A stretch of 64,000 nucleotides of DNA from Spirochaetaceae bacterium (GTDB lineage Bacteria; Spirochaetota; Spirochaetia; DSM-2461), in assembly GCA_965226485.1 (NCBI GenBank), contig OZ245363.1, positions 2,170,817 through 2,234,816 of the forward strand, in the 5' to 3' direction. A model generated the notes under the pieces. The model had not been told where the DNA came from. It saw only the letters and a program-made list of their open reading frames with translations, and made no database searches. The position numbers and the translations under genes are program-made. Positions 4,243 to 56,491 of the stretch are shown piece after piece; position 1 is the stretch's first letter, and every line of letters begins with the position of its first letter.

Positions 4243-4267
4243 TGACTTACTCCTTTAACTCTATTCT

Positions 4268-5915: not shown

Positions 5916-7143
5916 TAGTGCCCCGAACTCTGTGTTCACCGCTATACCCGAATGTACAACGGGATATAGCGATTAATTTTTACCCCGGGATTGCGCCACT
6001 GACTGAACCAGGTCTTGCGTTCTTCTGTACCCAGCTTGATTTTCCTCAGGAAGGGGCGCTTCATCCAATACTTGCCGATTATTTTGTCCAGGTCTGTGCG
6101 ATTGATTCCTGCCTCTTCTACATGCGTTGTCATGTCGTTCTTTCGGGCATCCTGGACCCGCCGGGCAATCATGCAGTTATGGTAGTGGCGGTAGAGGGTC
6201 ATGCGCATCATCATCGCACTGGGACACCGGGAAAACTGCACCGTCTCTCGCACATGATTGCAGTTATCTTTGCGTACCTGACGGTCAATGTAATTCACAG
6301 GGAATAGAGGATTGTTTTTATTCCTGAACTCATGTGAGGATATACATTCATGGAGAAAGTATTTTTTGAAGTCCTTGATCTTGGCGAAGGCTCGTGTATA
6401 CGATTTGTGTAGGTCTGTCGTCAATGTCTTCCCGGTAATTTTCTTTTCTTTAAGTAGTTGAATAAGTTCGCTAGCTATATTTCTAAACGATTTCTCAATG
6501 GCCTTCGGGTCGGCTTTTTCTATGGATTCTAGTACCATTCTCCGCTTCTTTTGTGCCTGGGTCATTCTTCCTTTGCGCCTAAGATTGGCAAAACCCATGC
6601 TGTAAATGAACTCGGATTCGGAGCCAGCAAAGATGTTGATATGATGGGGAAAGTACTGGGACTCGGAGAAAGATTCCAGCCCATCGGCGGCCATATCTTC
6701 TTGCAGAGGTAAATCAGGGAGCAGTTCGGAATGAATGGCCTGGCAGCATCTTGCCAGCCGTTCGAATCGGTTCTGAACGGTCTCTATTCTGACGTTAATA
6801 GCACGGCCTATATCGCCCAGCCCTGAAGCGGTGACAAGATGCTCGAAGATCTTTGAATAATCGACAACTTTTTTGGCATAGTAATCAATTGAAAAGGTTT
6901 GATCAGAAAAAGTCCTGCGGCAATTCTTACAGCGGTAACGCTGAACTTGGCCGAAGGCCGATGTTGGATGAAAACCATAGCGAATATACCAATTTTCCCC
7001 GGCGGGAGCCTCGAAATTGGAGCAATCGGGATTGGGGCAGTGTGGAAAAGTCATAACATACCTCCTTAGTAAGTTGTTTCCCTACTAAGGTATGACTTGC
7101 GTTTAGAGGCGATTTACTTCAAAAAACAGGCTTTGGGGCACTG
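5916..7143 (-). mobile_element. Insertion sequence (IS1-like, unclassified), ~1.23 kb
   Basis: Imperfect terminal IRs TAGTGCCCCGAA / TTTGGGGCACTG (10/12) enclosing a single ORF. Confidence 0.65.
5942..7054 (-). CDS. Putative transposase: N-terminal Zn ribbon and HTH, then RNase H-like catalytic domain
   Basis: CPNPDC...RYRCKNC Zn ribbon (InsA-like); acidic motifs AADGLESF, LTTDLHKSY, VNYIDRQVRKD; SD AGGAGG. Confidence 0.7.
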   Translation of the reverse strand: MTFPHCPNPDCSNFEAPAGENWYIRYGFHPTSAFGQVQRYRCKNCRRTFSDQTFSIDYYAKKVVDYSKIFEHLVTASGLGDIGRAINVRIETVQNRFERLARCCQAIHSELLPDLPLQEDMAADGLESFSESQYFPHHINIFAGSESEFIYSMGFANLRRKGRMTQAQKKRRMVLESIEKADPKAIEKSFRNIASELIQLLKEKKITGKTLTTDLHKSYTRAFAKIKDFKKYFLHECISSHEFRNKNNPLFPVNYIDRQVRKDNCNHVRETVQFSRCPSAMMMRMTLYRHYHNCMIARRVQDARKNDMTTHVEEAGINRTDLDKIIGKYWMKRPFLRKIKLGTEERKTWFSQWRNPGVKINRYIPLYIRV

Positions 7144-12986: not shown

Positions 12987-13014
12987 ACCCCCGCTATCGA
13001 GCGGGGGTTTTTTT
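12987..13014 (+). terminator. Rho-independent terminator
   Basis: ACCCCCGC-tatcga-GCGGGGGT followed by a T tract. Confidence 0.85.
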
Positions 13015-13015
13015 A

Positions 13016-13092
13016 GGGGCTGTGTCAGAATGCGCCTTTGGCCCGCATGCGGCGTTGCCTGCAAACCAAATCCATCATTCTGACACAGCCCC
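13016..13092 (+). mobile_element. MITE family, minimal 77-bp copy
   Basis: Perfect GGGGCTGTGTCAGAAT / ATTCTGACACAGCCCC IRs. Confidence 0.85.
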
Positions 13093-14150: not shown

Positions 14151-14329
14151 TTTTATATTGGGATCTTTTTTCTTGAGTATGACAGTTTGGCAACTCACCC
14201 TCATAAAGAGACTGCGGTGTTATTGTTCGAGCATCTCGTATTTCCGTTGTATCATTCTATTTTATATCAGCTTATTTATATGGTGATTAGCCACCGGGTT
14301 AATAGTACGCCACCGTTGTGAACTCCGTG

Positions 14330-17300: not shown

Positions 17301-18665
17301 GTGCACAGAGGTTTTTCAAAGCTTGGTCTGCTCCCCTCCGTGTCCTCTGTGATCTCCGTGAGATCTGAAAATGGCATGGGAGGTACAAAGTGTTTCGCAC
17401 AGAGGCACAAAGGGCTCAGAGGTTTTTAAATCTTTGCTTGCCCCCTCTCCTTTGCCTTTGTGATCTCCGAGAGAGGCAGAATTGTGCACAGAGGTTTTTC
17501 AACGCTTTTTCTGCTCCCCCTCCGTGTCCTCTGTGAACTCCGTGAGATCTAAAACGGTATGGGAGGTACAAAGTGTTTCGCACAGAGGCTCAGAGGGCAC
17601 AGAGGTTTTTAAAGCTTTGGCTGCCCCCTCCGTGTCCTTTGTGATCTCCGTGAGAAGCATAGTTTCGAACAGAGGTTTTTCAACGCTTTTTCTGCTCCCC
17701 CTCCGTGTCCTCTGTGAACTCCGTGAGATCTGAAAATGGCATGGGAGGTACAGAGAGTTTCGCACGGAGGCACAGAGTACACAGAGGTTTTTTAAAGATT
17801 TGTCTGATCTCCTCTTCGTGGCCTTTGCGATCTCCGAGAGAGGCAGAATTGTGCACAGAGGTTTTTCAACGCTTTTTCTGCTCCCCCTCCGTGTCCTCTG
17901 TGAACTCCGTGAGATCTAAAACGGCTTGGGATGTATAAAAAGTTTCGCACGGAGGCACAGAGTACACAGAGGTTTTTCAATGATTTGTCTGCTTCTCTCT
18001 CCATGTTCTTTCCGTTTTCTTTGTGAACTCCGTGAGATCTGAAAATGGCATGGGAGGTACAGAGAATTTCGCACGGAGGCACAGAGTACACAGAGGTTTT
18101 TTAAAGATTTGTCTGATCTCCTCTTCGTGTCCTTTGCGATCTCCGAGAGAGGCAGAATTGTGCACAGAGGTTTTTATATCTTTGCCTGCCCCCCCTCCGT
18201 GTCCTTTGTGATCTCCGTGAGATCTGAAAACGGCGTGGGAGGTATAAAGAGTTTCGCACAGAGGCACAGAGGGCTCAGAGGTTTTTAAAGCTTTGGCTGC
18301 CCCCTCCGTGTCCTTTGTGATCTCCGTGAGAAGCATAGTTTCGAACAGAGGTTTTTCAACGCTTTTTCTGCTCCCCCTCCGTGTCCTCTGTGATCTCCGT
18401 GAGATCTGAAAATGGCATGGGAGGTACAAAGTGTTTCGCACAGAGGCACAGAGGGCTCAGAGGTTTTTAAATCTTTGCCTGCCCCCTCTCCTTTGCCTTT
18501 GTGATCTCCGAGAGAGGCAGAATTGTGCACAGAGGTTTTTCAACGCTTTTTCTGCTCCCCCTCCGTGTCCTCTGTGATCTCCGTGAGAGCTATAACGGCG
18601 TGGGAGGTACAAAGAATTTCGCACGGAGGCACGGAGTGCACGGAGGGTTTTCAAAGCTTGGTTGA
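14330..18665. repeat. Array A: mosaic tandem array of ~45 units (~70 or ~110-120 bp) built from shuffled modules
   Basis: About 45 GAGGTTTTT anchors counted by hand; recurring CTCCGTGTCCTCTGTG / CACAGAGGCACAGAG imperfect inverted pairs. Confidence 0.95.
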
Positions 18666-18943
18666 AGAATAACTCAGCACTGAACATTCATCTATAGTGC
18701 CAGCTCTGCACTATGAGTCCAGCAAGTCATCCAAAGAGCGCAGTTGCCCCCCATCCCCTCTGGATCGTTTTTGTGCTACAATTCAAGGAGGCAGGCCAAC
18801 TCCTCGTGAGTCGGCTTTTTTCTATTTTTGTACGTCCTTTCCTGCACTATTCGATCATCCTGAGTCAAGATATTTTTCTCTTGCCTTGAATGTGGGTATT
18901 ACCTTCTGTGTCCCATGGGACTTTTTACCTTCTGTGCACCTTT

Positions 18944-20629: not shown

Positions 20630-20729
20630 AGGACTGTGTCAGAATGAGCCTTTGGTCCGCATGTGGCGTTGTCTGCCTGCAAACCAGATCCATCATTCTG
20701 ACCCACCCCCTGGATTCTGACACAGCCCC
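20630..20729 (+). mobile_element. MITE family copy with doubled right end
   Basis: GGACTGTGTCAGAAT...ATTCTGACCCACCCCCTGGATTCTGACACAGCCCC. Confidence 0.8.
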
Positions 20730-28701: not shown

Positions 28702-28857
28702 AAATGGATTAACTTCGCCGTAATAAGAAAGATTGAAAGGAAAGGAGCCCTGTGCGTCTGTCGGACCTATGTCTCACAATTCGATTTCTGCCCTTTCTCT
28801 TCAGTCGCATGCCTCTTTCACTGCATACTCCTTCCGAGCCGCCTTTGTTCGTTTTCC

Positions 28858-28958
28858 GGGGCTGTGCCAGAATGCACCTTTGGCCCGCATGTGGCGTTGC
28901 CTTGCCTGCAAACCAAATCCGTCATTCTGACCCAGCCCCTGGATTCTGACACAGCCCC
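28858..28958 (+). mobile_element. MITE family copy with doubled right end
   Basis: GGGGCTGTGCCAGAAT...ATTCTGACCCAGCCCCTGGATTCTGACACAGCCCC. Confidence 0.8.
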
Positions 28959-29296
28959 GGGCGGGGGATGAGCCCAACGGGCCCCCTCTTCTTCGCTATC
29001 GTTTAAGCTACGCTGAAGGTTTTGCCGCCTTGTTTCAGGAATAAATCATCAGAAATCGCCTCGAACACTCAATGTCCGACAGACTCCTAGAATAAATAGT
29101 CGCTAATTCACAGAGTTCCTCATACCTGATGGTGCTATTATACACTCCGAGAGCCTTCTCCACAACTATTTTTGAAAAGATATGATTAGGGAACACTTCC
29201 CCAATGCCCTACTCTGGTAGTCTGCTAACCGGCTCATTGCCAATCGGCGGGGGGAGTAGCGATATTTCCGCTACAATTCCTTGTGCCTATGTCATT

Positions 29297-29669
29297 GGCT
29301 CTTTGAACTACCTTATGGAATAAGATGGAAATAAAGTACTATTTGAAAATGGATGCTAGAGAGCCATATCAGCAAATACATGGAATTGTTACTAGGCCCT
29401 GATCTAAGCATAGACAATGATTGTGTGCATATATATCTGGAATGGCCGCAAGGGAAGTCGGCATTTGCCCAGAATGCGGTACTGTCTGCAAAATTCATGA
29501 CGGAAGAGAAGAGCGGACGTGGAGACATTTGGATACCTGTCAATTAAAGACGTATATTCACGGTCAAATTTCCCGAGTGAAATGTCCTGAATATAAAACC
29601 AAGACGATGAATATTCCATGGGCAAAAGAGACAAGCCGATTCACAGCACAGTTTCAAGCAGTGGCAATT
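29297..29669 (+). pseudogene. ISL3-family remnant (left end plus frameshifted, truncated transposase N-terminus)
   Basis: GGCTCT end; CPECG...HDGREERTWRHLDTCQ...IPWA..SRFT (zf-ISL3 type) split over frames. Confidence 0.8.
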
Positions 29670-29775
29670 GTCCTTATTCCTTCAATACAGAGGAATAAGA
29701 ACAATAATTATGTACAGTCGTTAAATATCATTAGACAAATAAAGCATTACAAATACAATTAACAAAAGGACGCTG

Positions 29776-30716
29776 ATGAAAACAATAGTAGATGACCAGA
29801 ATCACACACACTACAAGCTTCGACTCAGCGAGGTAGAAAAACCTGTGCCAAATGACAGTGAAGTTTTGTTGGAAGTTTTATCTACATCGCTAAATGCAGC
29901 GGACTACCGTTCAATGAAAATGGGGATAATTTCAAGGAAAAAGATAGTCGGATCTGCGGTATCAGGTAGAATAGAATCAGTTGGTAAAAACATCCAATAT
30001 TTCAAACCAGGTGATGAAGTAATCGGAGACCTTACAGATTTCGGATTTGGAGGATTAGCCGAATTCGCTGTAGCTCCTGAAAAAGCGTTCACTCACAAAC
30101 CTTCAAATGTTTCCTTTGAAGATGCTGCAACATTGCCTGTAGTAGCAATAACGGCACTGAAAGCACTGCGAGATAAAGGCAACATTCAAGATGGAAACGA
30201 TGTGTTAATTGTCGGTAGTACGGGCGGTGTTGGCAGCTATGCCTTGCAACTAGGCAAATGTTTTGGTGCAAATGTGACTGCAGTATGCAGTTCTAAAAAC
30301 ATGGAGCAAACAACTTCTTTGGGAGCAGATAAAGTAATAGACTATACAAAAAATGATTTTACAAAAAGTAGCGTTCGCTACGATCTCATTGTGGCAATCA
30401 ACGGCAATTATCCATTATTAGGTTACAGACGCATTCTACATTCAAAGGGCATATATGTTATGGTAGGCGGTACGCTTACCCAGATTTTTAAATCTATATT
30501 TTTCGGTTGGTTATTATCTTTTAGAGGAAATAAAATAAAAAATCTTTCTGCGAAATCTGATTCAAAAGACCTAGAGTACATTTCAAAACTCTTGAATGAA
30601 AATAAATAATGAAAGTCATTAATAAGCGTTACTCACTTGACAAGTCAGCAGAAGCAATGGATTATTTAAGTAAAGGACACTCGCCCGGCAAAGTGATTAT
30701 AAATGTTCAAAAATAA
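29776..30716 (+). pseudogene. NAD(P)-dependent alcohol dehydrogenase / quinone reductase (MDR family), frameshifted near the C-terminus
   Basis: SLNAAD, GSTGGVGSYALQL, LGADKVIDY; the tail KVINKRYSLDKSAEAMDYLSKGHSPGKVII is in another frame after 30609. Confidence 0.8.
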
Positions 30717-30769
30717 TAACGAATGTCCAACAAGACCTAGACTGCATTAGAACTCAACTTAACCAGAAC

Positions 30770-31026
30770 AAAAGAAGGAAAAGAAGCAGAGGAATTGTAT
30801 AATCAAGCCTTTGACAAATTCCAAAAAATATTGAATACGGGGCAATTTCCTGTAATCTTTTATGTATTTTTTCTTATAAGGGAGAAAAAGAACATGGTTT
30901 AAAATATTTGGATATTAGTCTCTCCAAAGATGAAATAATGTAGATTTTGTTCAAAAAAATGAAGATTGGAGATCCTTTCTTGAAGATAGTGATTTTATTA
31001 AGCTGATAAAACAGCATGTAAAATGA
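30770..31026 (+). pseudogene. C-terminal fragment of a TPR protein, multiply frameshifted
   Basis: GKEAEELYNQAFDKFQK / IEYGAISCNLLCIFSYKGEKEHGLKYLDISLSK / DFVQKNEDWRSFLEDSDFIKLI in successive frames. Confidence 0.5.
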
Positions 31027-31157
31027 AGCACGAAAGCACAGTATTTTGTATAAGTAATGGCAGGTAAAGAGGCAACTATTAAGATTTATAGCCTGCCAAA
31101 ACTGCATAGTGGTTTGACAGGAAACTAGTACTAGTCATATAATTTTCCGTTGAGGAT
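31026..31157 (+). repeat. attC-like site (degenerate)
   Basis: AAGCACGAAAGCAC..GTATAAGTAATGGCAGG ... CCTGCCA ... CATATAATTTTCC-GTTGAGG. Confidence 0.5.
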
Positions 31158-31176
31158 ATAAAAAAATAAAAAAACT

Positions 31177-31372
31177 GCATAACAAATCGTTGCACCTGAC
31201 ATCTTTCCGCTTTACTCAACAATGCAACTGAACTCAGCGATATGCAGAGAACTGCAATTGATGATTTTCTTGAGTAAAGGAAGCAAAAATGGTAAAAGAA
31301 AATATAAACAGTGGTTCTTATCCCTTCAATTCAGAGGTATAAGAACAATAATTATACACAGTCGTTGTATGC
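31177..31372 (+). repeat. 196-bp ORF-less attC-like unit, copy 1
   Basis: GCATAAC...GTTGTATGC; internal IRs CTTTACTCAA/TTGAGTAAAG and GTTCTTAT/ATAAGAAC; second copy 33263-33458, partial copy 29670-29728. Confidence 0.75.
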
Positions 31373-31412
31373 AATGTAAAATAACTGACAACCGTAACTT
31401 AATTGGAATAAT

Positions 31413-31784
31413 ATGAGCGGAAAAGCGGAATTTAAAAATGCGGACGAATATTTTGATGCCCAACCCGAAAATGTCAAAAAAATTCTTTTGGAATTAAAGG
31501 AATGTATTCTCAAAGCAGAACCAAATGCAACGGAACTGTTGAATTATAACATTCCTGCTTATGCTTTAGTCGAAAATGGAAAAAGGGAACAGCAGATTAT
31601 GATAGCGGGATATAAAAAACACGTTGGACTTTATCCACACCCAACGACTATGGAAAAATTCGACTCGGAATTGAAAGAATATAAACGAGCCAAAGGTTCG
31701 GTTCAGTTCCCATTAGACAAACCATTGCCGAAAGAACTGATTATCCGAATGATTAAGTATCGAATTGAACTATTAAAAGAGTAA
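31413..31784 (+). CDS. DUF1801/YdhG-like protein (cassette)
   Basis: DEYFDAQP, NYNIPAY, HVGLYP, KGSVQFPLDKPLPKELI. Confidence 0.85.
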   Translation: MSGKAEFKNADEYFDAQPENVKKILLELKECILKAEPNATELLNYNIPAYALVENGKREQQIMIAGYKKHVGLYPHPTTMEKFDSELKEYKRAKGSVQFPLDKPLPKELIIRMIKYRIELLKE

Positions 31785-31793
31785 AAAGACACT

Positions 31794-31857
31794 ACATACA
31801 ACAAAACCTATACGCAATACCCTTCGGGATAGTGCGCATAGGCAAACCGTTGGGTAC
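31794..31857 (+). repeat. attC-like site
   Basis: CATACAAC ... CCTATACGCA-loop-TGCGCATAGG ... GTTGGGTAC directly after a stop codon. Confidence 0.75.
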
Positions 31858-31876
31858 AACTATAAGAAACAAACAA

Positions 31877-32167
31877 GTGACAGAATTAGAACTGATAATT
31901 GACTTGCATAAAAATTCCGAGAAACAAAAGCCAGGTAGCGAAAATGATACGCTAAGAGCACCTGATTTATTGAATCTGCCGACTGACCAAAATTTGAAAG
32001 TGTCCGACATGGGTTGTGGTTCAGGTGGGCAGACGATTTCACTTGCCAAAAATTTGAACGGAAAAATCACGGCAGTTGACTTGTTTCCAGAGTTTTTAAA
32101 TGAAATCAATGAAAAATCACAGAAATTAGGATTGCAGATAAAATCGTTACGCTTGAAAAATCAATGA
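31877..32167 (+). pseudogene. Truncated copy of the class I SAM methyltransferase cassette
   Basis: Near-identical to 33478 onward (DMGCGSGG motif), frameshifted and cut at ~32170. Confidence 0.85.
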
Positions 32168-32224
32168 ATGAATAATCAAGATATCTGCCCGCTTTTTTTC
32201 ATGAAACTCATAGCCTCTACTGTC

Positions 32225-32378
32225 GCAAGCTACCCTGTGTATTCCTGTGACCTCATTGGCTAATTTGCCAACCAGTATTTGCCTGAGGGTAGTTATTCAT
32301 CCAGTCCTGTATTTCCCTGATTTTCTTCTTGCTGTAGCACCCTATATCGCAACCTTTGGGAATGGCTATACGTAATTT
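32225..32378 (-). pseudogene. IS30-family transposase C-terminal remnant
   Basis: Minus strand IPKGCDIGCYSKKKIREIQDWMNNYP matches the IS30 PKG...W.N..PR tail. Confidence 0.65.
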
Positions 32379-32419
32379 CTAAATCCTGCCTACTTCTGAA
32401 AATCCTCGCGGATTTTTAG

Positions 32420-32486
32420 TTTGGTGTGTACTTGCAAAGCTGAGTGCTAAACCACGCAACTACTTATAGCCGAGATCGTTTGCAAC
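32420..32486 (+). repeat. attC-like right arm
   Basis: CGCAACTACTTATAGCCGAGATC-GTTTGCAAC, similar to the right arm at 34341-34371. Confidence 0.6.
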
Positions 32487-32565
32487 ATAGTTGACCGTAC
32501 AAAGTGCAAGATAAAAATTTGAAAATATTGATTAATTTGTATCTTTCGGACTAAAATAATCTAAT

Positions 32566-32778
32566 ATGAGAACCAACGAGACAATAAAGGAGATTCAAAG
32601 ATTACCCATCCAAAAACGGATTCATGTGATTGAAAAAGCTATTCATTCGATTAGTAAACAAGAAGATGTAAACCAGATGGAAAGGGTAGCCGAAGCTTTA
32701 TATGCTGATTACAAATCCGATAAAGAATTGACTGCATTTACAAGCCTTGATTTTGAAGACTTTTATGAAGCAAGGTGA
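32566..32778 (+). CDS. Putative type II antitoxin
   Basis: 70 aa with acidic C-terminus (LTAFTSLDFEDFYE), overlapping the start of a PemK-like toxin. Confidence 0.65.
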   Translation: MRTNETIKEIQRLPIQKRIHVIEKAIHSISKQEDVNQMERVAEALYADYKSDKELTAFTSLDFEDFYEAR

Positions 32779-33110
32779 AGTTTGGCTAATAAATCTTGAT
32801 TCTACAATTGGAGCTGATATTATAAAACAAGACCTACAATAATTGTAAATGATGACTCGTTGGGTAAATTGCCTTTAAAGATCATTGTTCCGATTACGGA
32901 TTGGAAAGACAAACATGAAATTGCCCCATGGATGGTAAAAATAGAGTTATATTCGAAAAATAGGCTGACTAAAATCTCTTCTGCCGATTATTTTCAAGTT
33001 CGTTCTGTGTTACAAGAAAGATTTGTAAAAAACTGGGCAATATTTAAATGATAATAATGGATGAGATAAAGATCGGTTTATCGAGATTTTTGTCGATTAA
33101 AAATGAATAA
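32765..33110 (+). pseudogene. mazF: PemK/MazF toxin, two frameshifts
   Basis: MKQGEVWLINLDSTIGA / IIVNDDSLGKLPLKIIVPITDW...QVRSV..ERF in different frames. Confidence 0.8.
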
Positions 33111-33118
33111 ACTACGTT

Positions 33119-33251
33119 GCAGAACATGATATAGTTAATTGGCGGGCCGGTAGTATGCAAAAGTTATATACTTTTTATGTAAAGCAAATTGTAACTTGAC
33201 ACGGAAGTACTTTGAAATCGCCACCTAACCATAGGCCCATTCGTTGAGAGT
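33119..33251 (+). repeat. attC-like site
   Basis: GCAGAAC-ATGATATAGTTAATTGGCG ... CGCCACCTAACCATAGG..TTC-GTTGAGA after the toxin stop. Confidence 0.6.
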
Positions 33252-33262
33252 ATAAAAAAACT

Positions 33263-33458
33263 TTATAACAAACCGTTGCACATGACATCTTCCCGCTTTA
33301 CTCGACAATGCAGCTAAACTCAGCGATATACAGAGAACTGCAATTGATGATTTTCTTGAGTAAAAGAAGCAAAAATGGTAAAAGAAAAATATAACAGTGG
33401 TTCTTATCCCTCCAATTCAGATGTATAAGAACAATAACTATACACAGCTGTTGAGTAC
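33263..33458 (+). repeat. 196-bp ORF-less attC-like unit, copy 2
   Basis: Co-linear with 31177-31372 and the same length. Confidence 0.75.
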
Positions 33459-33477
33459 AACTATAAGAAACGAACAA

Positions 33478-34260
33478 GTGACAGAATTAGAACTAATAAT
33501 TGACTTGCATAAAAATTCCGAGAGACAAGGACCAGGCAGCGAAAATGATACGCTAAGAGCACTTGATTTATTGAATCTGCCGACTGACCAAAATTTGAAA
33601 GTGGCCGACATTGGTTGTGGTTCAGGTGGGCAGACGATTTCACTCGCCAAAAATTTGAACGGACAAATCACGGCAGTTGACTTGTTTCCAGAGTTTTTAA
33701 ATGACCTGAATGAAAAATCACAAAAGTTAGGATTTGCAGATAAAATTGTTACGCTTGAAAGATCAATGGACGACTTACCGTTCAAAAAGAATGAATTTGA
33801 CCTAATATGGTCAGAAGGTGCGATTTATAACATTGGGTTTGAAAACGGACTAAAAAAATGGAAGGACTACTTGAAAGTCGGCGGCTATTTGGCTGTGAGT
33901 GAAATCACTTGGATAACCCAATCTCGACCAAAGGAAATTGAAGAGTTTTGGAAAGCGGAATATCCTGAAATTGATACTGCTTCTAACAAAATTGGGCAAT
34001 TAGAAAATAATGGCTATTCGACTGTAGGATATTTCTATTTAAGTCAAGACAGTTGGATTGAGACCTATTATAAGCCAATGCAATCAAGGTTTAAGACTTT
34101 TCTGAAACGCAACGACAATTCAGAACTTGCAAGAAAGGTAGTTGAAGATAATCAAGCGGAAATCGAATTGTATCAAAAATTCAAAAATTATTATAGTTAT
34201 GGATTTTACATAGCGAGAAAAAATGAACAAAAGGTAGCACACAACAATGGCTGTACGTAA
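33478..34260 (+). CDS. Class I SAM-dependent methyltransferase (cassette)
   Basis: GTG start; VADIGCGSGG, FDLIWSEGAIY; stop lies inside the following attC. Confidence 0.9.
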   Translation: MTELELIIDLHKNSERQGPGSENDTLRALDLLNLPTDQNLKVADIGCGSGGQTISLAKNLNGQITAVDLFPEFLNDLNEKSQKLGFADKIVTLERSMDDLPFKKNEFDLIWSEGAIYNIGFENGLKKWKDYLKVGGYLAVSEITWITQSRPKEIEEFWKAEYPEIDTASNKIGQLENNGYSTVGYFYLSQDSWIETYYKPMQSRFKTFLKRNDNSELARKVVEDNQAEIELYQKFKNYYSYGFYIARKNEQKVAHNNGCT

Positions 34261-34371
34261 TGCAAGCGAAAGTGCTGATATGAAAGCAATTACATTAAAT
34301 AAACTAACAACTAAACGGAGGGTGAAATGCCTTGAAAGCCCGCACTACGCATGGCCGAGCCCGTTGCACAA
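34237..34371 (+). repeat. attC-like site
   Basis: GCACACAAC-AATGGCTGTACGTAATGC ... GCACTACGCATGGCCGAGCCC-GTTGCAAC. Confidence 0.7.
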
Positions 34372-34415
34372 CATTGTGCCGATAACGAAAACAAGAATTT
34401 TAAAAGTAATTCAAA

Positions 34416-34976
34416 ATGATATATATAATTAGCGGAACATCAAGGTCTGGAAAAACTCTGGCTGCTAAGAAAATGATGGAGCAGTCTGAAATTCCATATT
34501 TATCACTTGACTGGTTGATAATGGGATTTACAAACGGTATTCCTGAATATGGTATTCATGACAAATTATGGCCTAATGAAATTGCTGAAAGATTTTGGGA
34601 TTTCTTTAAAGCTATGCTTGAAAATATGATATGGTCAGAAACTGATTATATCATTGAGGGTGAGGCTGTACTCCCTGAACTTATATATGAATTATTAAAA
34701 AAGCATCCAGATAGGATTAAAGTGTGTTTCGTTGGCTATACGAATGTGAATATAAGTGAAAAGGTTGAGGATGTTTATCATTATAGTAAAGGGAGACATG
34801 ATTGGTTAACTAGCAAATCGAAAGACTATATCGAAAGGCATATAAGCAACATGATTGAATATAGTAAAAAGATAAAAAAATCTTGCAAAAAGTATGGTAT
34901 TAGATATTTTGATAATTCCAGAAAATTCACACAAGTCTTAGATGATGCAATAGAATATTTGATTAAAAAGGAATAG
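34416..34976 (+). CDS. P-loop NTPase / small-molecule kinase-like protein (cassette)
   Basis: N-terminal Walker A GTSRSGKT, IIEGEAVLP. Confidence 0.8.
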   Translation: MIYIISGTSRSGKTLAAKKMMEQSEIPYLSLDWLIMGFTNGIPEYGIHDKLWPNEIAERFWDFFKAMLENMIWSETDYIIEGEAVLPELIYELLKKHPDRIKVCFVGYTNVNISEKVEDVYHYSKGRHDWLTSKSKDYIERHISNMIEYSKKIKKSCKKYGIRYFDNSRKFTQVLDDAIEYLIKKE

Positions 34977-35106
34977 CAATGCGTAAAAAAGTAGCATCTA
35001 GCCACTTCAATGACTTTTTCAGCAAGCCCTACATTTTCCAGGGAATATGAAATTTATACTATTCTAAAAATGGCAGTTGAACTTTTTTTTTTTAGCGGGG
35101 AGCAGT

Positions 35107-35331
35107 GGGCACGCCCTGAAACCCATGCCCCGAAGCGTAATGCATCTTACGCCGGGCACGCCCAGAAATGCATAACCCGAAGCGTGATGCATCTCACGCC
35201 GGGCACGCCCAGTAATGCATCCCCCGATGCGAAATGAATCCCACGCCGGGCACGCCCTGAAACGCATCCCCCGAAGCGGAATGCATCTTACGCCGGGCAT
35301 GCCCAGAAACCCATCCCCCGAAGCGAAATGC
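35107..35331. repeat. Array B1: ~5 units of the 47-bp repeat
   Basis: Unit CGGGCACGCCCAGAAACGCATGCCCCGAAGCGGAATGCATCCCCCGC with variants. Confidence 0.9.
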
Positions 35332-35931
35332 TGTAATCTCGCAAAATATCCTAACCAATCTCCCCATGAATATCTCACACTCAGTTAACTAATTTTTCAC
35401 AACAGATAATCTAATTCTCAATCTCTCCGAACATAAAAAAAGGAGCAGGGCCCACGCAAATGCACACCTACTCCAATCTCAATCCCTCCCCAAAGGGAGG
35501 AACAATCTTGATACTTATTTGTCGGATAGATTTAGAAGAACTTAAAGACTCTGGAAAGGAATTTCCCTGGATCAACCCAGATAGCTGTCCTTGCTGTGGC
35601 GGATGTCGGCTCTGGGGCCATGGATTTGTCCTGAGATATTTCCATGGCTACACCGCAGGGTTATGGCTGAAACGGTACCGTTGTCCCGACTGCCATACTG
35701 TTCATACCTTACGTCCTGAAAAATATTCACTAGGTTTTCAGTATCCCTGGAAATGTCCAGGGTAATCACAATTCCCCATGGATAAGCCAGCCAGGGTAAT
35801 TAAGATTCCCCATACGATACAGCTGAGGGTAATCAAGATTCCCCATAAATCGGCCTCTAGGGTAATCACAATTCCCCACTCCCTTCCGTAGATCATTTAC
35901 AATACTCCTGCAACAAAACGCAGGAGTACAT

Positions 35932-37491
35932 ATGGGATACAGAAGGATGAATATTATCGATTTAAAATGCATTTACAGAAGACTACAGTCGGATCAAAGC
36001 ATAAAGACTATCAGCGAATCCGAAGGTTATGACCGAAAAACAATCAGGCATTATCGAGATGCCATGAAATCCTCCGGTCTGCTTGAATCACCTGATCCAT
36101 CGGAAGAGATCTTGGCGGAAAAGCTCTTTGAACTGCTTCCGAACAACGAACGAAGCAGCCCGATACACGATGAATTCCATCAGCACAAAGATGAGATCAT
36201 CCGGCTCACCACAAGGGAACAGGAGCCTATGAAGCTGAAGAGTGCGTTCATCGTCATCAAGCAAAAGTATGGTCTGGGGGGCAGTTACGAGAGCTTCAAA
36301 GTCTTCTCCCGCAAACATCATTTGACGGTTCCCGGGAAAAAGCAGTTCCCGCGACTGGAGTTGCCGCCGGGAGAGGAGACACAGATAGATTATGGTCGAG
36401 TCGGTTTGCATGAAGAGCCGGGAACAGGTAAGAACCGTGTCATCAATGCCTTCGCAGCCAAGCTTTCCTCCTCCAGGCTACCATTCATAGAGTTTACCTA
36501 TTTTCAGAACCAGGAATCCTTTGTCGGGAGCAATGACAATATGGTTCGTTTTTTTGGCGGAGTCACCGAATACCTGACCATTGACAACCTCAAGTCCGGT
36601 GTGATTAGAGCCGACATATACGATCCTCAGATCAACAAGGCATATGCGGAATGGGCGGAGCATCACGGTACTTTTATCAATCCCTGTATCAAGGCACACG
36701 CCAAAGGGAAGGCCAAGGTCGAAAGGATGATTCCTGAAGCCCGAGAGCTTTTTCGACGATTGAAAGAGCTTCATCCCTCCGCAACTCTCAAAGAGCTCAA
36801 TGAAGAGGCAAAGAAGTGGTGTCTGAATGAGTACGGACAGAAAAAGCATGGGACCACTGGCATCCCGCCTTATGAGGCTTTTATCGATGAAGAGAAGCCT
36901 AAGCTAAAACCTATAAATCCTATTCGCTTTGAGATCCCGGTCTGGAAATCTGCAAACGTCCATATGGATCAGTTTGTCAGTTTTGAGAAAAAGCGCTTTT
37001 CCATGCCCTTGTCCTATCGCAGAAAGATCGTGCACTGCCGACGGGCTGGCAGTCTGGTGAAGATCTATGATGAGAATTATCTCTTTATCAGGCAATACGT
37101 TACTACATCCAGGAAAGTGTACTGTACCGACGGTGATTTCCCGCCGGATCAACGTGCGATGATCAAAGGCGATTACCCGCAGTTTCTGATCGGACGGGCA
37201 GCGGCCTACGGATCTGGATCGAAACAACTTGTGGAACAGATCCTGCGGTCTCATGCATTTATAAACGCCCGTATCGCCAAGGGAATGATCACACTCTTCG
37301 AGCAGTACAAGGACCTGCCGTTGCTGCAAGATGTGTGTAGCAAGGCGGCGACCTTCAAGGTGCGCCAACCGAAGCACTTGAAGATCATGCTGGAAGATGA
37401 AAAGAAACAGAAACACCTGGTATTTGAAGTCCCTCGCTCAACGGCGGGTGAAGCCATGGTCAGAGATATTCGAGAATACATGAGCAATTAA
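35932..37491 (+). CDS. istA: IS21 transposase IstA
   Basis: GEETQIDYG, TIDNLKSGV, KGKAKVER DDE motifs. Confidence 0.95.
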   Translation: MGYRRMNIIDLKCIYRRLQSDQSIKTISESEGYDRKTIRHYRDAMKSSGLLESPDPSEEILAEKLFELLPNNERSSPIHDEFHQHKDEIIRLTTREQEPMKLKSAFIVIKQKYGLGGSYESFKVFSRKHHLTVPGKKQFPRLELPPGEETQIDYGRVGLHEEPGTGKNRVINAFAAKLSSSRLPFIEFTYFQNQESFVGSNDNMVRFFGGVTEYLTIDNLKSGVIRADIYDPQINKAYAEWAEHHGTFINPCIKAHAKGKAKVERMIPEARELFRRLKELHPSATLKELNEEAKKWCLNEYGQKKHGTTGIPPYEAFIDEEKPKLKPINPIRFEIPVWKSANVHMDQFVSFEKKRFSMPLSYRRKIVHCRRAGSLVKIYDENYLFIRQYVTTSRKVYCTDGDFPPDQRAMIKGDYPQFLIGRAAAYGSGSKQLVEQILRSHAFINARIAKGMITLFEQYKDLPLLQDVCSKAATFKVRQPKHLKIMLEDEKKQKHLVFEVPRSTAGEAMVRDIREYMSN

Positions 37492-37507
37492 CAAGAAGGA
37501 GAAAACT

Positions 37508-38275
37508 GTGAAAGAAATGCAAACACTTGAGGCCAATCTTCGTCGGTTGAGAATGCCGGGGATACTGGAGAACCTCGATCTACGGCTCCGGGAAGCTGAA
37601 GATGGCGGACTCGGTTATCTGGATTTTTTGATTCTGCTGATTCAAGATGAGGTTGTAAATCGCGATTCCAACATCCTGAGCAAACGTCTGAAAGTCGGAA
37701 GCTTGAGTCCCAGAATGACTTTTGAGAACTTTAACTACCGGTTCAATATGGCAACCATTCCGCAGCAGACCATCCGGGATCTGGCGACTTGCCGCTTTAT
37801 CAGGGACCATAGAAGTCTGGTTCTGTGCGGCCCTCCCGGAATTGGTAAGACCCACATAGCACAGGCCATCGGTCATGAGGTGTGCCGCCGGGGAGGAGAT
37901 GCCCTATTCGTCAAAACCCAGAAACTTTTAGAGTGTCTGACAGACGACTCCTACCCGAGGAGAGTGGCCCGGTTATGGAAGCAGATCAAGACAATGGACT
38001 TGCTGGTTCTCGATGATTTTGGTTTTCGACGTTATGACTCGAAAGAATCCGAGTTGCTTTATGCGCTGGCAGACGAACGTTTGGGAAGTGGTTCGACCAT
38101 CATCACATCCAACCGTCCGCCGCAAGACTGGTACGGTGTCTTTCCCGATCCGGTCATCGGCGGGGCGGTGCTGGATAGACTGGTTTCCGGTGCTATTAAG
38201 ATCATTGTCGAGGAAGCTAAGTCTTACAGGATGCATGGAGTATTCGGTGAGGGGACAGAGGGAAAAGGCTCTTGA
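37508..38275 (+). CDS. istB: IS21 helper ATPase IstB
   Basis: GPPGIGKTH, LLVLDDFG, ITSNR, AVLDRL. Confidence 0.95.
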   Translation: MKEMQTLEANLRRLRMPGILENLDLRLREAEDGGLGYLDFLILLIQDEVVNRDSNILSKRLKVGSLSPRMTFENFNYRFNMATIPQQTIRDLATCRFIRDHRSLVLCGPPGIGKTHIAQAIGHEVCRRGGDALFVKTQKLLECLTDDSYPRRVARLWKQIKTMDLLVLDDFGFRRYDSKESELLYALADERLGSGSTIITSNRPPQDWYGVFPDPVIGGAVLDRLVSGAIKIIVEEAKSYRMHGVFGEGTEGKGS

Positions 38276-38510
38276 CTTATTATAAAATCGGTTCTACGAT
38301 TTGACTACCGGAAGGGGGTGGGAATTTAAATTACCCTGGGTGGGGAATATGATTACCCTCGACACTGGAAAGAAATCCAATCTTCATTAGAACACAAGCT
38401 CAAGGGTCTCACATTCCGAATAGAGCTATCCCAGCAGTGCCAGCAGTATTGGATGAAAGCACTTCTGTTCCAACGAAAACAAGTTTCTAATTGGCCGGGG
38501 CTATGGTAGG

Positions 38511-38714
38511 ATGTTTGAAGCTCCCATTGGGCTGATCGGGATGAATGTCACTCTTCGTTATGAAAATTACGATCACATTGAGGTTTTCCTGGATGATGAA
38601 CCCAGGGGATATCTTTCCCTTCTCAACGAGCATAGCAATAGTAAAATTCAAAGAGCAACTCACTTTGAAAAGCAAAAAGGGTCTCTCTTTGAGAAGGCTG
38701 CGGGGGATGAATAA
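38511..38714 (+). pseudogene. C-terminal remnant of a Mu-like/DDE transposase (catalytic core deleted)
   Basis: FEAPIGLIGMNVTLRYENYDHIEVF resembles the Mu-transposase C-terminal beta domain; overlaps the ExeA start. Confidence 0.55.
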
Positions 38715-39385
38715 TGGAAAACCTCAGACACTTCTTTGGCTTGAAAAAAGATCCCTTTTCCCAGAATGTTGCGGTTCGGGATTTATACCCTCTGCCAGCA
38801 TTGGACCCCCTGAAACAGAGAGTCAGCTTTGCAGTACAACAAAAGGCTATCACTGTAATTACCGGTGATGTGGGAGCAGGGAAATCCACATGATCATTGA
38901 TGAGGCTCACCTGTTTAAACACAATGTTTTTGCTCAGCTACACACCCTGTTGCAGTTTGACTATGATTCCAAACCGGTTATGCCAAGTTTAGTCGCCCCC
39001 CGTGCGGGGGCGTGGATTGTTGCAGTTTGAATATGATTCCAAACCGGTTATGCCAGTTATCCTATGTGGATAGGACGGATTGATGGACCATCTGATGACC
39101 AGTGTAGCTAGGCCTTTGGCATCACGGGTTTTAGGAAAGAATCATCTGGAATCAATTAAAAGAGAAGTCATGGAGAAATACTTGAATCATCATCTTGCTT
39201 TGGCTGGTTTAGAAAAACCGATATTTGCAGAAAATGCTGTTTATGCGATTCATCAGAAATCGGGTGGCATCCTACGAAGGGCTAATTCATTGGCAAAAGT
39301 AGCTATGCTTGCTACCGCCATGGAAAGGGAAGAGTCTGTTTCTGCTGAACATGTTCGAGTCGCTGCTACAGAGCTTACCCTGTAA
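38707..39385 (+). pseudogene. ExeA-family AAA+ ATPase, internally deleted and interrupted
   Basis: GDVGAGKST fused out of frame to IIDEAH at ~38890; internal stop; C-terminus SGGILRRANSL. Confidence 0.8.
38992..39019 (+). CRISPR. Single truncated type I-C-like CRISPR repeat (not an array)
   Basis: GTCGCCCCCCGTGCGGGGGCGTGGATTG equals the first 28 nt of the common I-C repeat that ends GAAAC; no cas genes or second repeat. Confidence 0.6.
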
Positions 39386-39388
39386 TAA

Positions 39389-39424
39389 CATAATCCGGAG
39401 GGAGGGCCGGATTATGTTCTTTTT
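39389..39424 (+). terminator. Rho-independent terminator
   Basis: Perfect 10-bp IR CATAATCCGG/CCGGATTATG followed by TTCTTTTT. Confidence 0.75.
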
Positions 39425-39486
39425 GAATTGAGAAATTGTCTAACTGATCGTGAAAGGGTTTGGGTGGAATAATTTGAGAAACTACA

Positions 39487-40452
39487 CCGGGTGCACCCAA
39501 AAACGCATGCCCCGAAGCGAAATGCCTCCCCCGCCGGGCACGCCCAGAAACGCATCCCCCGAAGCGGAATGCATCTTACGCCGGGCATGCCCAGAAACCC
39601 ATCCCCCGAAGCAAAATGCATCCCCCGGCGGGCACGCCCAGAAACGCATGCCCCGAAGCGAAAGGCCTCCCCCGCCGGGCACGCCCAGAAACGCATGCCT
39701 CGAAGTGAAATGCATCCCCCGGCGGGCACGCCCAGAAACGCATGCTTCGAAGCGGAATGCATCTCCCGCCGGGTGCGCCCAGAAATGCATGCTCCGAAGC
39801 GGAATGCATCTTACGCCGGGCATGCCCAGAAACGCATGCCCCGAAGCGAAATGCCTCCCCTGCCGGGCACGCCCTGAAACGCATGCCCCGATGCGAAATG
39901 AATCTCACGCCGGGCACGCCCTGAAACGCATCCCCCGAAGCGAGATGCATCTCACGCCGGGCACGCCCTGAAATGCATGCCCCGAAGCGAAAGGCCTCCC
40001 CCGCCGGGTGCACCCAAAAACGCATGCCCCGAAGCGGAATGCATCTTACGCCGGGCATGCCCTGAAACGCATGCCCCGAAGCGAAATGCCTCCCCCGCCG
40101 AGCACGCCCAGAAACCCATCCCCCGAAGCAAAATGCATCCCCCGCCGGGCACGCCCAGAAACGCATGCTTCGAAGCGAGATGCATCTCCCGGAGGGCACG
40201 CCCAGTAATGCATGATCCGAAGCGTGATGCATCTCACGCCGGGCACGCCCAGTAATGCATGATCCGAAGCGTGATGCATCTCACGCCGGGCACGCCCAGT
40301 AATGCATCCCCCGATGCGAAATGAATCCCACGCCGGGCATGCCCAGAAACCCATCCCCCGAAGTGAAATGCATCCCCCGGCGGGCGCGCCCAGAAATGCA
40401 TGCTTCGAAGCGAGATGTATCCCCCGCCGGGCACGCCCTGATACCCATGCCC
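39487..40452. repeat. Array B2: ~20 units of the 47-bp repeat
   Basis: Same unit as B1 and B3. Confidence 0.95.
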
Positions 40453-44005: not shown

Positions 44006-44062
44006 GAGATGTCGGACTTTGCCCAGCTGGGGGGGGGCCCTTTTTTCTCTCTCGGGGGAGGG

Positions 44063-44101
44063 GCAGAATCCAGGGGGAGGGTCAGAATGATGGATTCGGT
44101 T
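44063..44101 (-). mobile_element. MITE family partial copy
   Basis: CAGAATCCAGGGGGAGGGTCAGAATGATGGATT matches the doubled end of other copies. Confidence 0.6.
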
Positions 44102-56329: not shown

Positions 56330-56491
56330 GGGACTGTGTCAGATTCCAGGGGGTGGGTCAGAATGATGGATTTGGTCTGCAGGCAAGGCGGCGAAAAGTT
56401 CTGAAAGCGGAGTGTACATGCTGTACATGAGCATTTCAGGTTTTTTCGCCAACGCCGTATGCGGGCCAAAGGCGCATTCTGACACAGCCCC
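56330..56491 (-). mobile_element. MITE family copy (one internal unit, doubled end), reverse orientation
   Basis: GGGACTGTGTCAGATT...ATTCTGACACAGCCCC; internal part is the reverse complement of the 4268 unit. Confidence 0.85.

Follow-up and report, generated by a model that had tools for sequence, protein, structure and literature searches.

The DNA analyzed here, referred to as the window, is a stretch of 64,000 nucleotides from a 3.5-Mb Spirochaetaceae bacterium genome. Within it, positions 29665-34985 form a block of 35% GC in a chromosome of 48% GC (0.33-0.36 between 30 and 35 kb, 0.42-0.54 in the flanks), in agreement with the AT-rich region of the original prediction. The + strand carries every gene of this block, and imperfect hairpins ending at GTT lie between the genes. 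The encoded functions are typical of cassettes: an MDR/zinc-dependent alcohol dehydrogenase, a DUF1801 protein, a SAM-methyltransferase, a toxin-antitoxin pair and a P-loop protein, with Pfam matches for all but the antitoxin-like ORF and the P-loop protein. An integron cassette consists of a promoter-less gene and, after it, an imperfect palindrome that folds as single-stranded DNA. A tyrosine recombinase cuts and rejoins this palindrome within a GTTRRRY box, at G|TT.

Gene and cassette content of the block

At the left edge of the array, the 5' fragment of an ISL3-family IS (29297-29664, + strand; Pfam Zn_ribbon_ISL3, E=7.6e-11) begins with an IR-like GGCTCTTTGAAC, continues through ~80 N-terminal transposase codons, and is then cut. 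This fragment is multi-copy by metagenome depth, and a search for a matching right end found none. A gene neighboring the array carries a TP_1001_2nd Pfam domain, in keeping with a spirochete host. The first cassette (29720-30760, + strand) encodes the dehydrogenase, which is split by a frameshift into two pieces (29776-30609 and 30606-30716) that both match Pfam ADH_N, ADH_zinc_N and ADH_zinc_N_2; in run X5, a variant with an additional A after 30603 restores the frame. At the end of this cassette the attC is reduced to its 5' half (GTCCAAC AAGAC CTAGACT..., 30733-30760). Next come the debris of a broken ORF, TPR-like when the sequence is read by eye, and then an attC (together 30741-31155, + strand). 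A perfect TTGACA-18-TATAAT promoter match (12/12 in a promoter scan) lies within this attC at 31114-31143.

A non-coding unit with GTT at both sides, termed YX, is present in two copies on the + strand (31149-31366 and 33243-33452; repeat D3, 87% identical) with different neighbors on the left and on the right. Copy 1 comprises a short leader, 24 nt (31189-31212) with 23/24 identity to a cassette start in Deferribacteraceae V6Fe1 (L077), a segment at 31251-31277, and a site of the type we name X-site below (31289-31366). Alignment with recombinase-bearing loci of other genomes identified 31251-31277 as the last 8 codons and stop of a recombinase gene (TAIDDFLE*). The DUF1801 cassette (31364-31855, + strand; ORF 31413-31784; Pfam DUF1801, E=5e-14) starts with GTTGTATGC, complementary to its own R'' ACATACAAC at 8/9 positions.

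A methyltransferase cassette is present in one truncated and one full copy. The truncated second copy (31849-32171, + strand) has 94% identity between 31849-32133 and 33450-33734 (repeat D2), with homology starting exactly at GTT. It is truncated by debris from 32172 onwards that, with an orphan attC recognized by fold and scan, extends to 32484; the debris has a depth of 4-6 times baseline in runs X1 and X2, and its minus strand resembles, by eye, a C-terminal transposase fragment. The toxin-antitoxin cassette (32476-33249, + strand), whose attC was recognized by scan and fold, encodes an antitoxin-like protein of 70 aa (32566-32778) and a frameshifted PemK/MazF-like protein (32775-33051; weak Pfam PemK_toxin match, E=0.003). 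The full SAM-methyltransferase cassette (33450-34369, + strand; ORF 33478-34260; Pfam Methyltransf_11 and Methyltransf_25, E=4e-15) has a start complementary to its own R'' at 7-8/9 positions, and its protein is 65% identical to one in a KSB1 MAG (L002), where it also lies behind an X-site. The last cassette (34363-35031, + strand) has no attC and encodes a 186-aa protein (ORF 34416-34976) with the P-loop sequence GTSRSGKT, which had no match in a Pfam search and was a singleton in clustering. The block ends with a 47-nt segment (34985-35031) that, according to depth and loose ends, recurs beside a tRNA 3' end in metagenomes.

Five junctions have ordinary attC architecture

About eight junctions ending in GTT, five of attC type and three X-sites, lie within 5.3 kb; the array junctions of the original prediction are real, and its count of about seven is slightly low. 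attC architecture was present at 31036-31155, 31796-31855, 32340-32484, 33119-33249 and 34237-34369, and at the last four we could read the R''-5 nt-L''...L'-spacer-R' geometry and obtain bottom-strand folds. The 60-nt site at 31796-31855 (R'' ATACAAC, 5-nt spacer, L'' CTATACG, L' CGCATAG, R' GTTGGGT; GTT at 31849-31851) has a bottom-strand fold with z=-2.8. The orphan site at 32340-32484 reads GGCTATACGTAAT...ACTACTTATAGCC GAGATC GTT, and that at 33119-33249 (131 nt) has its GTT at 33243-33245. The site at 31036-31155 (~120 nt, GTT at 31149-31151) has a degenerate R'' and has homologs in L080 (10908-11049) and L093 (3551-3680). The 133-nt site at 34237-34369 (R'' GCACACAAC, AATGG, L'' CTGTACG ... 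L' CGCATGG, R' GTTGCAC) belongs to a family also found in L077 and L078. This last hairpin, ACAACAATGG..TAATGC...GCACTAC.CAT.GCC..CCGTTG, had been described as non-standard; it follows the standard layout, and because five junctions have ordinary attC architecture the hairpins given that description are in fact standard. Bottom-strand folding of the junctions into R- and L-box hairpins, on which the original prediction depended, was found at the attC-type sites.

In these folds the spacers between the R and L boxes are left unpaired. The L stems contain mismatches and bulges, and free-energy folds do not fix the identity of the extrahelical bases. attC identity here rests on manual geometry, folding and homology, and Rfam holds no attC family. 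A crude geometric attC scan matched 3 times within the 5.3-kb block and 3 times over the remaining 58.7 kb of that strand, a real background; stronger evidence comes from cassette duplicates that break exactly at GTT. The two copies of the methyltransferase cassette start at the same GTT (31849 and 33450) although the site in front of each is different, and the junctions therefore act like crossover points at G|TT; both this cassette and the YX unit occur in differing contexts with the breakpoint at GTT. Co-oriented genes, GTT-ended hairpins and duplicates breaking at GTT together support the cassette array that had been proposed.

A position near 40455 had also been put forward as a canonical attC. 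We rejected this candidate: a 47-bp tandem repeat (39496-40452) has its final unit there, and a terminator-like hairpin comes next. The genome is rich in further repeats, both interspersed and tandem.

The X-site and its associated recombinase in other genomes

The remaining three junctions, which were not singled out in the original prediction, are by their sequence a distinct conserved site of about 70 nt, here named X-site. The copies in the window (repeat family D4) measure 58-78 nt, end in ...ACAGTC|GTT, and lie at 29665-29722 (+ strand, 5'-truncated), 31289-31366 and 33375-33452. Copy 1, which conforms to the cross-phylum pattern, has the hairpin GTCCTTATTCC...GGAATAAGAAC followed by AATAATTATGTACAGTC|GTT (29720-29722), and its DNA fold has -10.1 kcal/mol and z=-4.5. 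The pattern consists of an 11-bp stem ATTGTTCTTAT/ATAAGAACAAT, an imperfect GC-rich extension, AAYTATRYAC, 4 nt and GTT, and all three window copies match it. The pattern leaves the 5' arm unconstrained at six positions; across 59 unique copies, five of these positions are paired in 93-97% and the sixth in 66%. The junction is observed at GTT, 4-8 nt past the inverted motifs. To our knowledge, described attI sites are unlike this strong hairpin.

Searching with the X-site returned 76 places at about 72 loci in more than 10 phyla. Conservation at these loci extends up to GTT, with divergence and a GTTRRRY-type sequence beyond it. At about 30 of the 76 places a full or partial recombinase gene ends 43-47 nt upstream, and the X-site starts about 20 nt past its stop codon on the sense strand. 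The X-sites of the window are orphan sites, with the last 8 codons of this gene left in two copies and nothing in the third.

The X-site-linked recombinase is an Xer/IntI-like protein of 277-283 aa (typically 278 aa) without the IntI-specific insertion of about 35-40 aa near patch III (the I2 helix), which is held to be essential for attC recognition (PMC8138268). Aligned to VchIntIA, it passes directly from residue 207 to residue 249, skipping the I2 insertion at 208-248. With the IntI model TIGR02249 (cutoff 265) it matches in two stretches and reaches 202-213 bits, and it is above cutoff on the NCBIfam XerA/integron-integrase model NF040815. The gene and its 3' X-site form a unit of roughly 1 kb bounded on both sides by G|TT, the left end being G|TTATACAT in at least four different contexts, and many deletion derivatives retain both unit ends. 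The gene stands at the array start beside core genes in at least five lineages, and the unit is also found mid-array behind an ordinary attC. Canonical attCs separate the genes downstream of the recombinase in L078, L080, L093 and L077; L081 ends at the recombinase and the L083 locus ends within large cargo genes. True IntIs, insertion included, are abundant in the phyla that carry the recombinase: L093 has a true IntI and a recombinase-like gene in one array, and in L020 a true IntI lies directly behind an X-site.

Discussion

We consider it highly probable that the block at 29665-34985 was acquired horizontally as part of an integron-type cassette array and has since degraded. It would then be a CALIN, the name given to clusters of attC sites that lack an integron-integrase. 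Such arrays are frequent (Cury et al. 2016, PMC4889954), and Treponema phagedenis, in which attC sites and cassettes have outlasted intI (Wu, Doak & Ye 2013, PMC3607928), provides a spirochete precedent. As in CALINs (PMC4889954), the attC-type sites lie less than 4 kb apart between co-oriented promoter-less cassettes with no integrase nearby, and the likely origin is an integron that lost its integrase end. Five attC-type sites and three X-sites in 5.3 kb exceed the two or more attCs at spacings below 4 kb expected of such an array, and no integron integrase lies within 4 kb. Reading of ORF translations and tblastn (E<=1) found no tyrosine recombinase or recombinase pseudogene in the 64-kb window, in support of the predicted integrase-less state. 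The components of a complete integron (an intI with the insertion, an attI next to it and a Pc promoter) are not found in the window, where the ISL3 fragment occupies the upstream end. In contrast to CALINs as described, three of the eight junctions are a conserved recombinase-linked site, with short 3' gene remnants left. Capture across phyla, as originally proposed, is supported insofar as modules are common to several phyla: the methyltransferase is found in a KSB1 MAG, attC types of the window turn up again in MAGs, Deferribacterota among them, and in arrays from other phyla, and the X-site is similarly widespread; nothing points to the Bacteroidota as donor.

An ordinary acquired island, with REP- or MITE-like repeats or terminators as its intergenic palindromes and no relation to integrons, would fit a genome rich in other repeats, and some of the hairpins fold freely no better than shuffled sequence. 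However, homology breaks exactly at GTT, the R''/R' and L''/L' geometry is present, and the same site families adjoin true integron integrases and sit within arrays of other phyla, and we regard this explanation as very improbable. It is somewhat easier to imagine, though still improbable, that the X-site works at the RNA level, perhaps as a 3'-UTR element or in read-through control between the recombinase gene and the cassettes, and not as a DNA recombination site. Its position just downstream of the stop codon on the sense strand is consistent with this, as are two mutually exclusive hairpins with one arm in common and the L083 variant, whose main hairpin is kept on the sense strand only through four G-T wobbles. 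Against an RNA role, other variants have C-A mismatches on the sense strand, an Rfam search with the X-site gave no match even at E<=1, no T-run follows the hairpin, conservation ends exactly at GTT with GTTRRRY-type sequence next, and solo X-sites persist without the gene, including in the window. Continuing activity of the array, with an integrase elsewhere in the genome working in trans on the cassettes, appears unlikely. The window covers 64 kb of 3.5 Mb, the attCs at 31796-31855, 33119-33249 and 34237-34369 look intact, and the duplicated cassettes and YX units attest to past recombination. Yet a second complete genome carries the array at 99.7% identity, two metagenomes show it unchanged, and no excision joints at GTT sites were seen in metagenome (Logan) contigs, which omit rare variants such that low-frequency excision would escape. 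Two frameshifted genes, a truncated cassette, IS debris, and several degenerate or missing R'' boxes or attCs are further marks of decay. We therefore prefer to interpret the array as a static remnant that has no integrase.

The X-sites are the truly unusual junctions, those of attC type being ordinary, and the linked recombinase may be cassette cargo or the integrase of an insertion-less integron-like platform. We tentatively entertain the second option, without favoring it: a working integron-type integrase without I2, with the X-site as its primary recombination site, an attI equivalent just 3' of a co-oriented gene, an arrangement known from Treponema-type integrons. The X-sites of the window would in that case each denote a platform in decay or a platform end that was copied, rather than a cargo cassette. 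Consistent with this are five independent lineages (L078, L080, L081, L083-L092 and the diverged L093) in which the gene has core genes or a tRNA on one side, a co-oriented array or defense-gene island on the other, and no attC upstream, the canonical attCs downstream in four loci, the profile-model scores, the conservation that stops at GTT, and the deletion derivatives that keep both ends. However, the roughly 40 aa held essential for attC recognition are absent (PMC8138268), true IntIs are abundant in the same phyla, including the one within the L093 array and the one behind the X-site in L020, a unit mid-array behind an ordinary attC is cargo-like, and first place in an island beside a tRNA is also the usual position of genomic-island integrases.

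Known systems resemble the recombinase and its site in part. Like IntI (VchIntIA, PDB 2A3V; TIGR02249), it has catalytic motifs of the form HxLRHSFATHLL...LGH...IYTH, a ..NP.DDF tail at the C-terminus, a crossover at G|TT and, as for attI, a conserved site adjoining the gene; unlike IntI, it skips residues 208-248 and scores below the TIGR02249 cutoff. Related arrays in other genomes resemble Treponema integrons (PMC3607928) in having the integrase co-oriented with the cassettes. The Treponema IntIs, treated there as true integron integrases, are larger, judging by a T. succinifaciens gene span of about 1.2 kb, whereas the X-site-linked recombinase has 277-283 aa and no IntI insertion. Its best sequence matches are XerA/Xer proteins (PDB 4A8E, 5HXY; NF040815), which are of similar length with no extra domain; their sites, however, are of dif type, two arms around a 6-8 bp spacer, with no known link to cassette arrays. 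Delta-attI-type cassettes of mobile integrons are reported (PMC12901181) to have a partial attI-type site in place of the normal attC and show that platform-end sequences can be copied into arrays; as presented there they belong to class 1 resistance integrons with IntI1, and differ from the present case in sequence, host range and recombinase.

In this genome the recombinase genes have been deleted, with their final 8 codons still in front of two X-sites and no trace of them at the other, and the ISL3 fragment has taken the place of the original upstream sequence. On the remnant reading, the array would no longer be able to rearrange alone and would be kept as cargo, its expression relying on internal promoters such as the consensus match at 31114-31143. 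If the X-site-linked recombinase is indeed an integrase, many CALINs of anaerobic-sediment phyla, including the ancestor of this array, would represent a second, unrecognized kind of integron platform. A weaker version would also be new: the recombinase and true intI genes may both move as G|TT-bounded cassettes in this pool.

A decaying integron-type cassette array

The AT-rich block is a cassette array of the integron type, now decaying and missing its recombinase end or ends. It is a CALIN (a cluster of attC sites without a nearby integron integrase), for which there is a precedent in Treponema phagedenis (PMC3607928). GC content at 29.0-35.0 kb is 0.33-0.36, versus about 48% for the 64-kb window. 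The low-GC block is flanked on the left by a 529-aa gene adjoining leuS, and on the right by a 47-bp tandem array and then glmS. All of its ORFs are on the + strand. A frameshift divides an MDR/zinc-dehydrogenase gene in two (29776-30609 and 30606-30716); next come the remains of broken ORFs (TPR-like by eye only, on reading of the sequence), DUF1801 (31413-31784) and the 5' part of a SAM-methyltransferase gene that starts at 31849. These are followed by an antitoxin-like ORF of 70 aa together with a PemK/MazF-like ORF that is frameshifted (32566-33051), a full methyltransferase (33478-34260) and a P-loop protein of 186 aa (34416-34976). On its left the block adjoins an ISL3 transposase fragment of about 80 codons with a Zn_ribbon_ISL3 match.

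Reading, folding and a geometric scan identified the standard attC layout at five junctions of the block. The 60-nt site at 31796-31855 consists of R'' ATACAAC, a 5-nt spacer, L'' CTATACG, a loop, L' CGCATAG, a 6-nt spacer and R' GTTGGGT, and its two spacers are unable to pair with each other. The hairpin at 34237-34369, which the original prediction regarded as non-standard, has ordinary attC architecture (GCACACAAC AATGG CTGTACG TAATGC ... GCACTA CGCATGG CCGAGCCC GTTGCAC). The same plan is found at 33119-33249, 32340-32484 and 31036-31155, the last with a degenerate R''. At 40455, where a canonical attC had been placed, the 47-bp tandem repeat (39496-40452) ends with its last unit and a terminator-like hairpin comes next; no attC is present there. 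The long attC sites had unremarkable z-scores in free folding, as expected when only the hairpin base is conserved. A free-energy scan for AAC...GTT hairpins was unspecific: it chose coding sequence of high GC content and overlooked genuine sites. The geometric scan performed better, yet with background: on one strand it gave three matches in the 5.3-kb block and three in the other 58.7 kb.

What decides that these are cassette junctions is positional evidence. The methyltransferase cassette is present twice at 94% identity, starting at 31849 behind the DUF1801 attC and at 33450 behind a different type of site (the X-site, described below), and the homology begins exactly at GTT. A non-coding unit of 210-220 nt ending in an X-site also occurs twice (31149-31366 and 33243-33452), with GTT at both ends and different neighbours. 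In addition, the first bases of a cassette complement the R'' of the attC that belongs to it (GTTGTATGC with ACATACAAC; GTTGAGTAC with GCACACAAC), which is the expectation for a cassette linearised at the G|TT crossover point.

A perfect sigma-70 consensus (TTGACA-18-TATAAT) at 31114-31143 lies within an attC and is directed into the array. An internal TGTAACTTGACAGG motif is common to many long attCs of the cassette pool, for example those at loci L078, L093 and L100. Together these sequence features suggest that promoters may be carried by attC sites.

A conserved site shared across phyla

Three junctions of the window (29665-29722, 31289-31366 and 33375-33452) share a single element, GGTTCTTATCCCTYCAATTCAGAKGTATAAGAAC AATAAYTATACACAGYY|GTT, which we refer to as the X-site and which forms a strong hairpin (fold z -3 to -4.5). 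A degenerate search pattern with approximately 21.5 specified bases, for which the estimated number of chance matches is well under one, located 25 loci in a collection of species-representative genomes and a further 47 in metagenomes. The 25 loci of the genome collection lie in metagenome-assembled genomes of KSB1, Marinimicrobia, Cloacimonadota, Spirochaetota, Desulfobacterota, Bacteroidota, Verrucomicrobiota, Calditrichota, Ignavibacteriota-type and further lineages, and in one isolate, Desulfothermus okinawensis. Aligned copies are conserved as far as GTT, and then diverge into GTTRRRY-type sequence.

At approximately 30 of 76 X-sites, a tyrosine recombinase gene in the same orientation ends 43-47 nt upstream. 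They include full-length copies, truncated copies and copies with an internal deletion that spares both ends. In the two non-coding units of the window only the last 8 codons are left (TAIDDFLE*, compared with NPIDDFFD*), and no recombinase remnant was found at the leftmost X-site copy (29665-29722).

Pairing between the X-site arms was analysed in 59 unique copies, a biased sample as they were derived from the search pattern, which left the 5' arm unconstrained. Of the six unconstrained positions, five are paired with the 3' arm in 93-97% of the copies and one in 66%, the latter with a G-A mismatch in 17 copies. An extension of the stem contains two conserved mismatches between C-G pairs. Diverged copies anchored by the recombinase gene carry compensatory changes that keep the main hairpin (C-G to G-C in L078, and two positions in L077, Deferribacteraceae V6Fe1). 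In these diverged copies one motif occurs three times, twice direct and once inverted, allowing a possible second hairpin that uses the same 3' arm. This second hairpin is possible in the consensus, L077, L080 and L083; L078 lacks it, and in L081 the 5' flank pairs with the tail. A single fold was therefore rejected, as the diverged copies back the main hairpin and several of them also the alternative sharing its 3' arm, so that they single out no one fold or strand. A dif-like core site, suggested by a pair of inverted motifs 8 nt apart, was also discarded, the junction GTT lying 4-8 nt outside the last motif, as was a small ORF across the X-site (peptide MIKEKYKQLFLSLQFGG...), whose frame differs between copies. 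Rfam contains no match to the X-site, and a tRNA search gave no hits.

An IntI-like recombinase family without the IntI insertion

The X-site-linked recombinase is 277-283 aa long and contains the domains Phage_int_SAM_4 and Phage_integrase. It scores 227-235 bits against NCBIfam NF040815 ("site-specific tyrosine recombinase/integron integrase", the XerA model; cutoff 220), and 202-213 bits against the integron-integrase model TIGR02249, under the 265-bit cutoff and with the match split into two stretches. Its best matches among solved structures are XerA (4A8E, 5HXY). Aligned with VchIntIA (2A3V), the protein skips from residue 207 to 249, indicating that it is without the approximately 40-aa IntI-specific insertion. 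This insertion is considered essential if attC sites are to be recombined. It has been described as "not fully conserved" within the integron-like subgroup (Smyshlyaev et al., PMC8138268), and the non-IntI recombinases near attC in complete genomes available in 2016 were judged not to be IntI (Cury et al., PMC4889954).

The family is very large, with more than 7,900 proteins at E<=1e-30 among 8,000 candidates scored; the best 120 clusters listed are 72-100% identical. Members include proteins of Hippea maritima (strain DSM 10411) and Deferribacteraceae V6Fe1, both of which have an intact unit. Plasmid relatives have an identity of just 47-57%. The family name comes from annotation pipelines, and we found no paper in the literature describing its biology.

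Recombinase genes and true intI genes as G|TT-bounded units

Comparison with other loci showed the recombinase gene in two types of setting. In L013, L018, L024, L052/L059/L068, Hippea (L074) and V6Fe1 (L077) it lies behind an ordinary attC whose R' doubles as the unit's conserved beginning (G|TTATACAT or GTTATGC), and the upstream contexts vary. The recombinase unit therefore behaves as a cassette. At L078, L080, L081, L083-L092 and the diverged L093, no attC was found upstream of the gene, which has a platform-like position: after a tRNA in L078, beside divergent core genes in L080, and after a glycosyltransferase gene in L083-L092. Downstream of the platform-like recombinase (L078, L080, L083-L092, L093) are co-oriented accessory genes (TIR/ThsB-like, restriction-modification, MmeI-like), and canonical attCs of approximately 130 nt separate the accessory genes in L078, L080, L093 and L077. 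This check for downstream attCs excludes L081, where the sequence ends at the recombinase, and L083, where it ends within the cargo genes.

The array in the window is linked to these loci by several similarities. The attC at 34237-34369 is homologous to sites in L077 and L078, and that at 31036-31155 to sites in L080 and L093. The 24 nt GTTGCACCTGACATYTTTCCGCTT at 31189-31212 are identical at 23 of 24 positions to a cassette start in V6Fe1 (L077 11921-11944). A KSB1 genome carries the methyltransferase cassette at 65% protein identity, likewise directly behind an X-site.

True integron integrases are part of the same cassette pool. One of them, a 321-aa IntI with the signature insertion, lies 55 nt beyond an X-site in L020 (Salinivirgaceae), and the same phyla contain many members of this IntI family. 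The intI genes of L020, L093 and L097-L101 (Cloacimonadota, Marinimicrobia and Bacteroidota) begin with a conserved G|TTATCGGTAAGATTTTGGAG immediately after attCs that vary, and they have cassettes in the same orientation on both sides; the L020-type unit has at its other end a hairpin finishing ...CTTAT|GTT. From its sequence context, intI thus looks as if it were a cassette itself. The order in L093, on one strand, is a recombinase-like gene, five cassettes, IntI, two cassettes and core genes. Since true IntI is present in the pool, ordinary IntI activity can account for the cassettes.

State of the array and its surroundings

The same array is present at 99.7% identity in a second complete genome (3.52 Mb, ena:ERZ25069865:ctg6097_24x_c) and unchanged in two metagenomes, in which no contig joined GTT sites. 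A low-depth metagenome variant has an extra A after 30603, which restores the dehydrogenase frame. Metagenome depth shows 29293-29754 and 32065-32526 to be multi-copy, consistent with IS debris. The possibility that the array lies inside a complete ISL3 element (right inverted repeat near 35063-35085) was rejected, as depth is single-copy there and the left fragment is multi-copy. A contig from metagenome run X2 joining 29290 to 35107, a candidate empty-site allele, was uninformative, with one side anchored by 27 nt in a highly repeated unit; a paralogous neighbouring locus does not account for this join. At the right edge, 47 nt (34985-35031) recur on other contigs of the same metagenomes, once directly before a reverse-complemented tRNA 3' end, and may be an old attachment-site remnant.

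Other repeats and mobile elements surround the block. The 47-bp GC-rich unit (GGGCACGCCCAGAAACGCATCCCCCGAAGCGAAATGCATCTCACGCC) forms large tandem arrays at 35107-35331, 39496-40452 and 58690-61102, with metagenome depth in the thousands and related flank sequences at 29227-29285 and 61345-61402. Inserted DNA divides a single array into the first two of these. This insertion (35332-39500; IS21, other IS and AAA-ATPase gene fragments at 38545-39385) is recent, because it is missing from the second complete genome, of related strain L001. Its IS21-family element (35756-38365; istA 35932-37491, istB 37508-38275, multiple 22-nt terminal repeats) sits within a DUF6431-type ORF (35460-35765). Approximately 4.4 kb of non-coding tandem repeats at 14300-18700 (units of 92-184 nt, rich in GCACGGAGG and CTCCGTG) have a strongly negative AT skew and lack long ORFs. 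A REP-like interspersed palindrome of approximately 100 nt (28855-28960, 4264-4650, 13010-13092, 20631-20729, 44053-44101, 56330-56491) is very abundant in metagenomes, with depth in the thousands. A 370-aa ORF with an N-terminal zinc-ribbon (5942-7054), transposase-like on reading of the translation only, lies amid fatty-acid synthesis genes.

Implications

By itself, the window provides a useful though ordinary further case of a spirochaete with a cassette remnant that lacks an integrase. Beyond the ordinary is the X-site, unusually conserved across phyla. Its tie to a large insertion-less IntI-like recombinase family also goes beyond this, as does the finding that both the insertion-less recombinase gene and true intI behave as G|TT-bounded units. 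The X-site is a cross-phylum marker tying integrase-less arrays to this family. If the family does recombine cassettes, integron detection would change, since current tools demand the insertion, as would the picture of the step from Xer to IntI. If instead the recombinase is cargo only, it would still show that genes for recombinases, among them true intI, move around as cassettes, and such cassette-borne recombinase genes would help to account for the spread of integron platforms across phyla.
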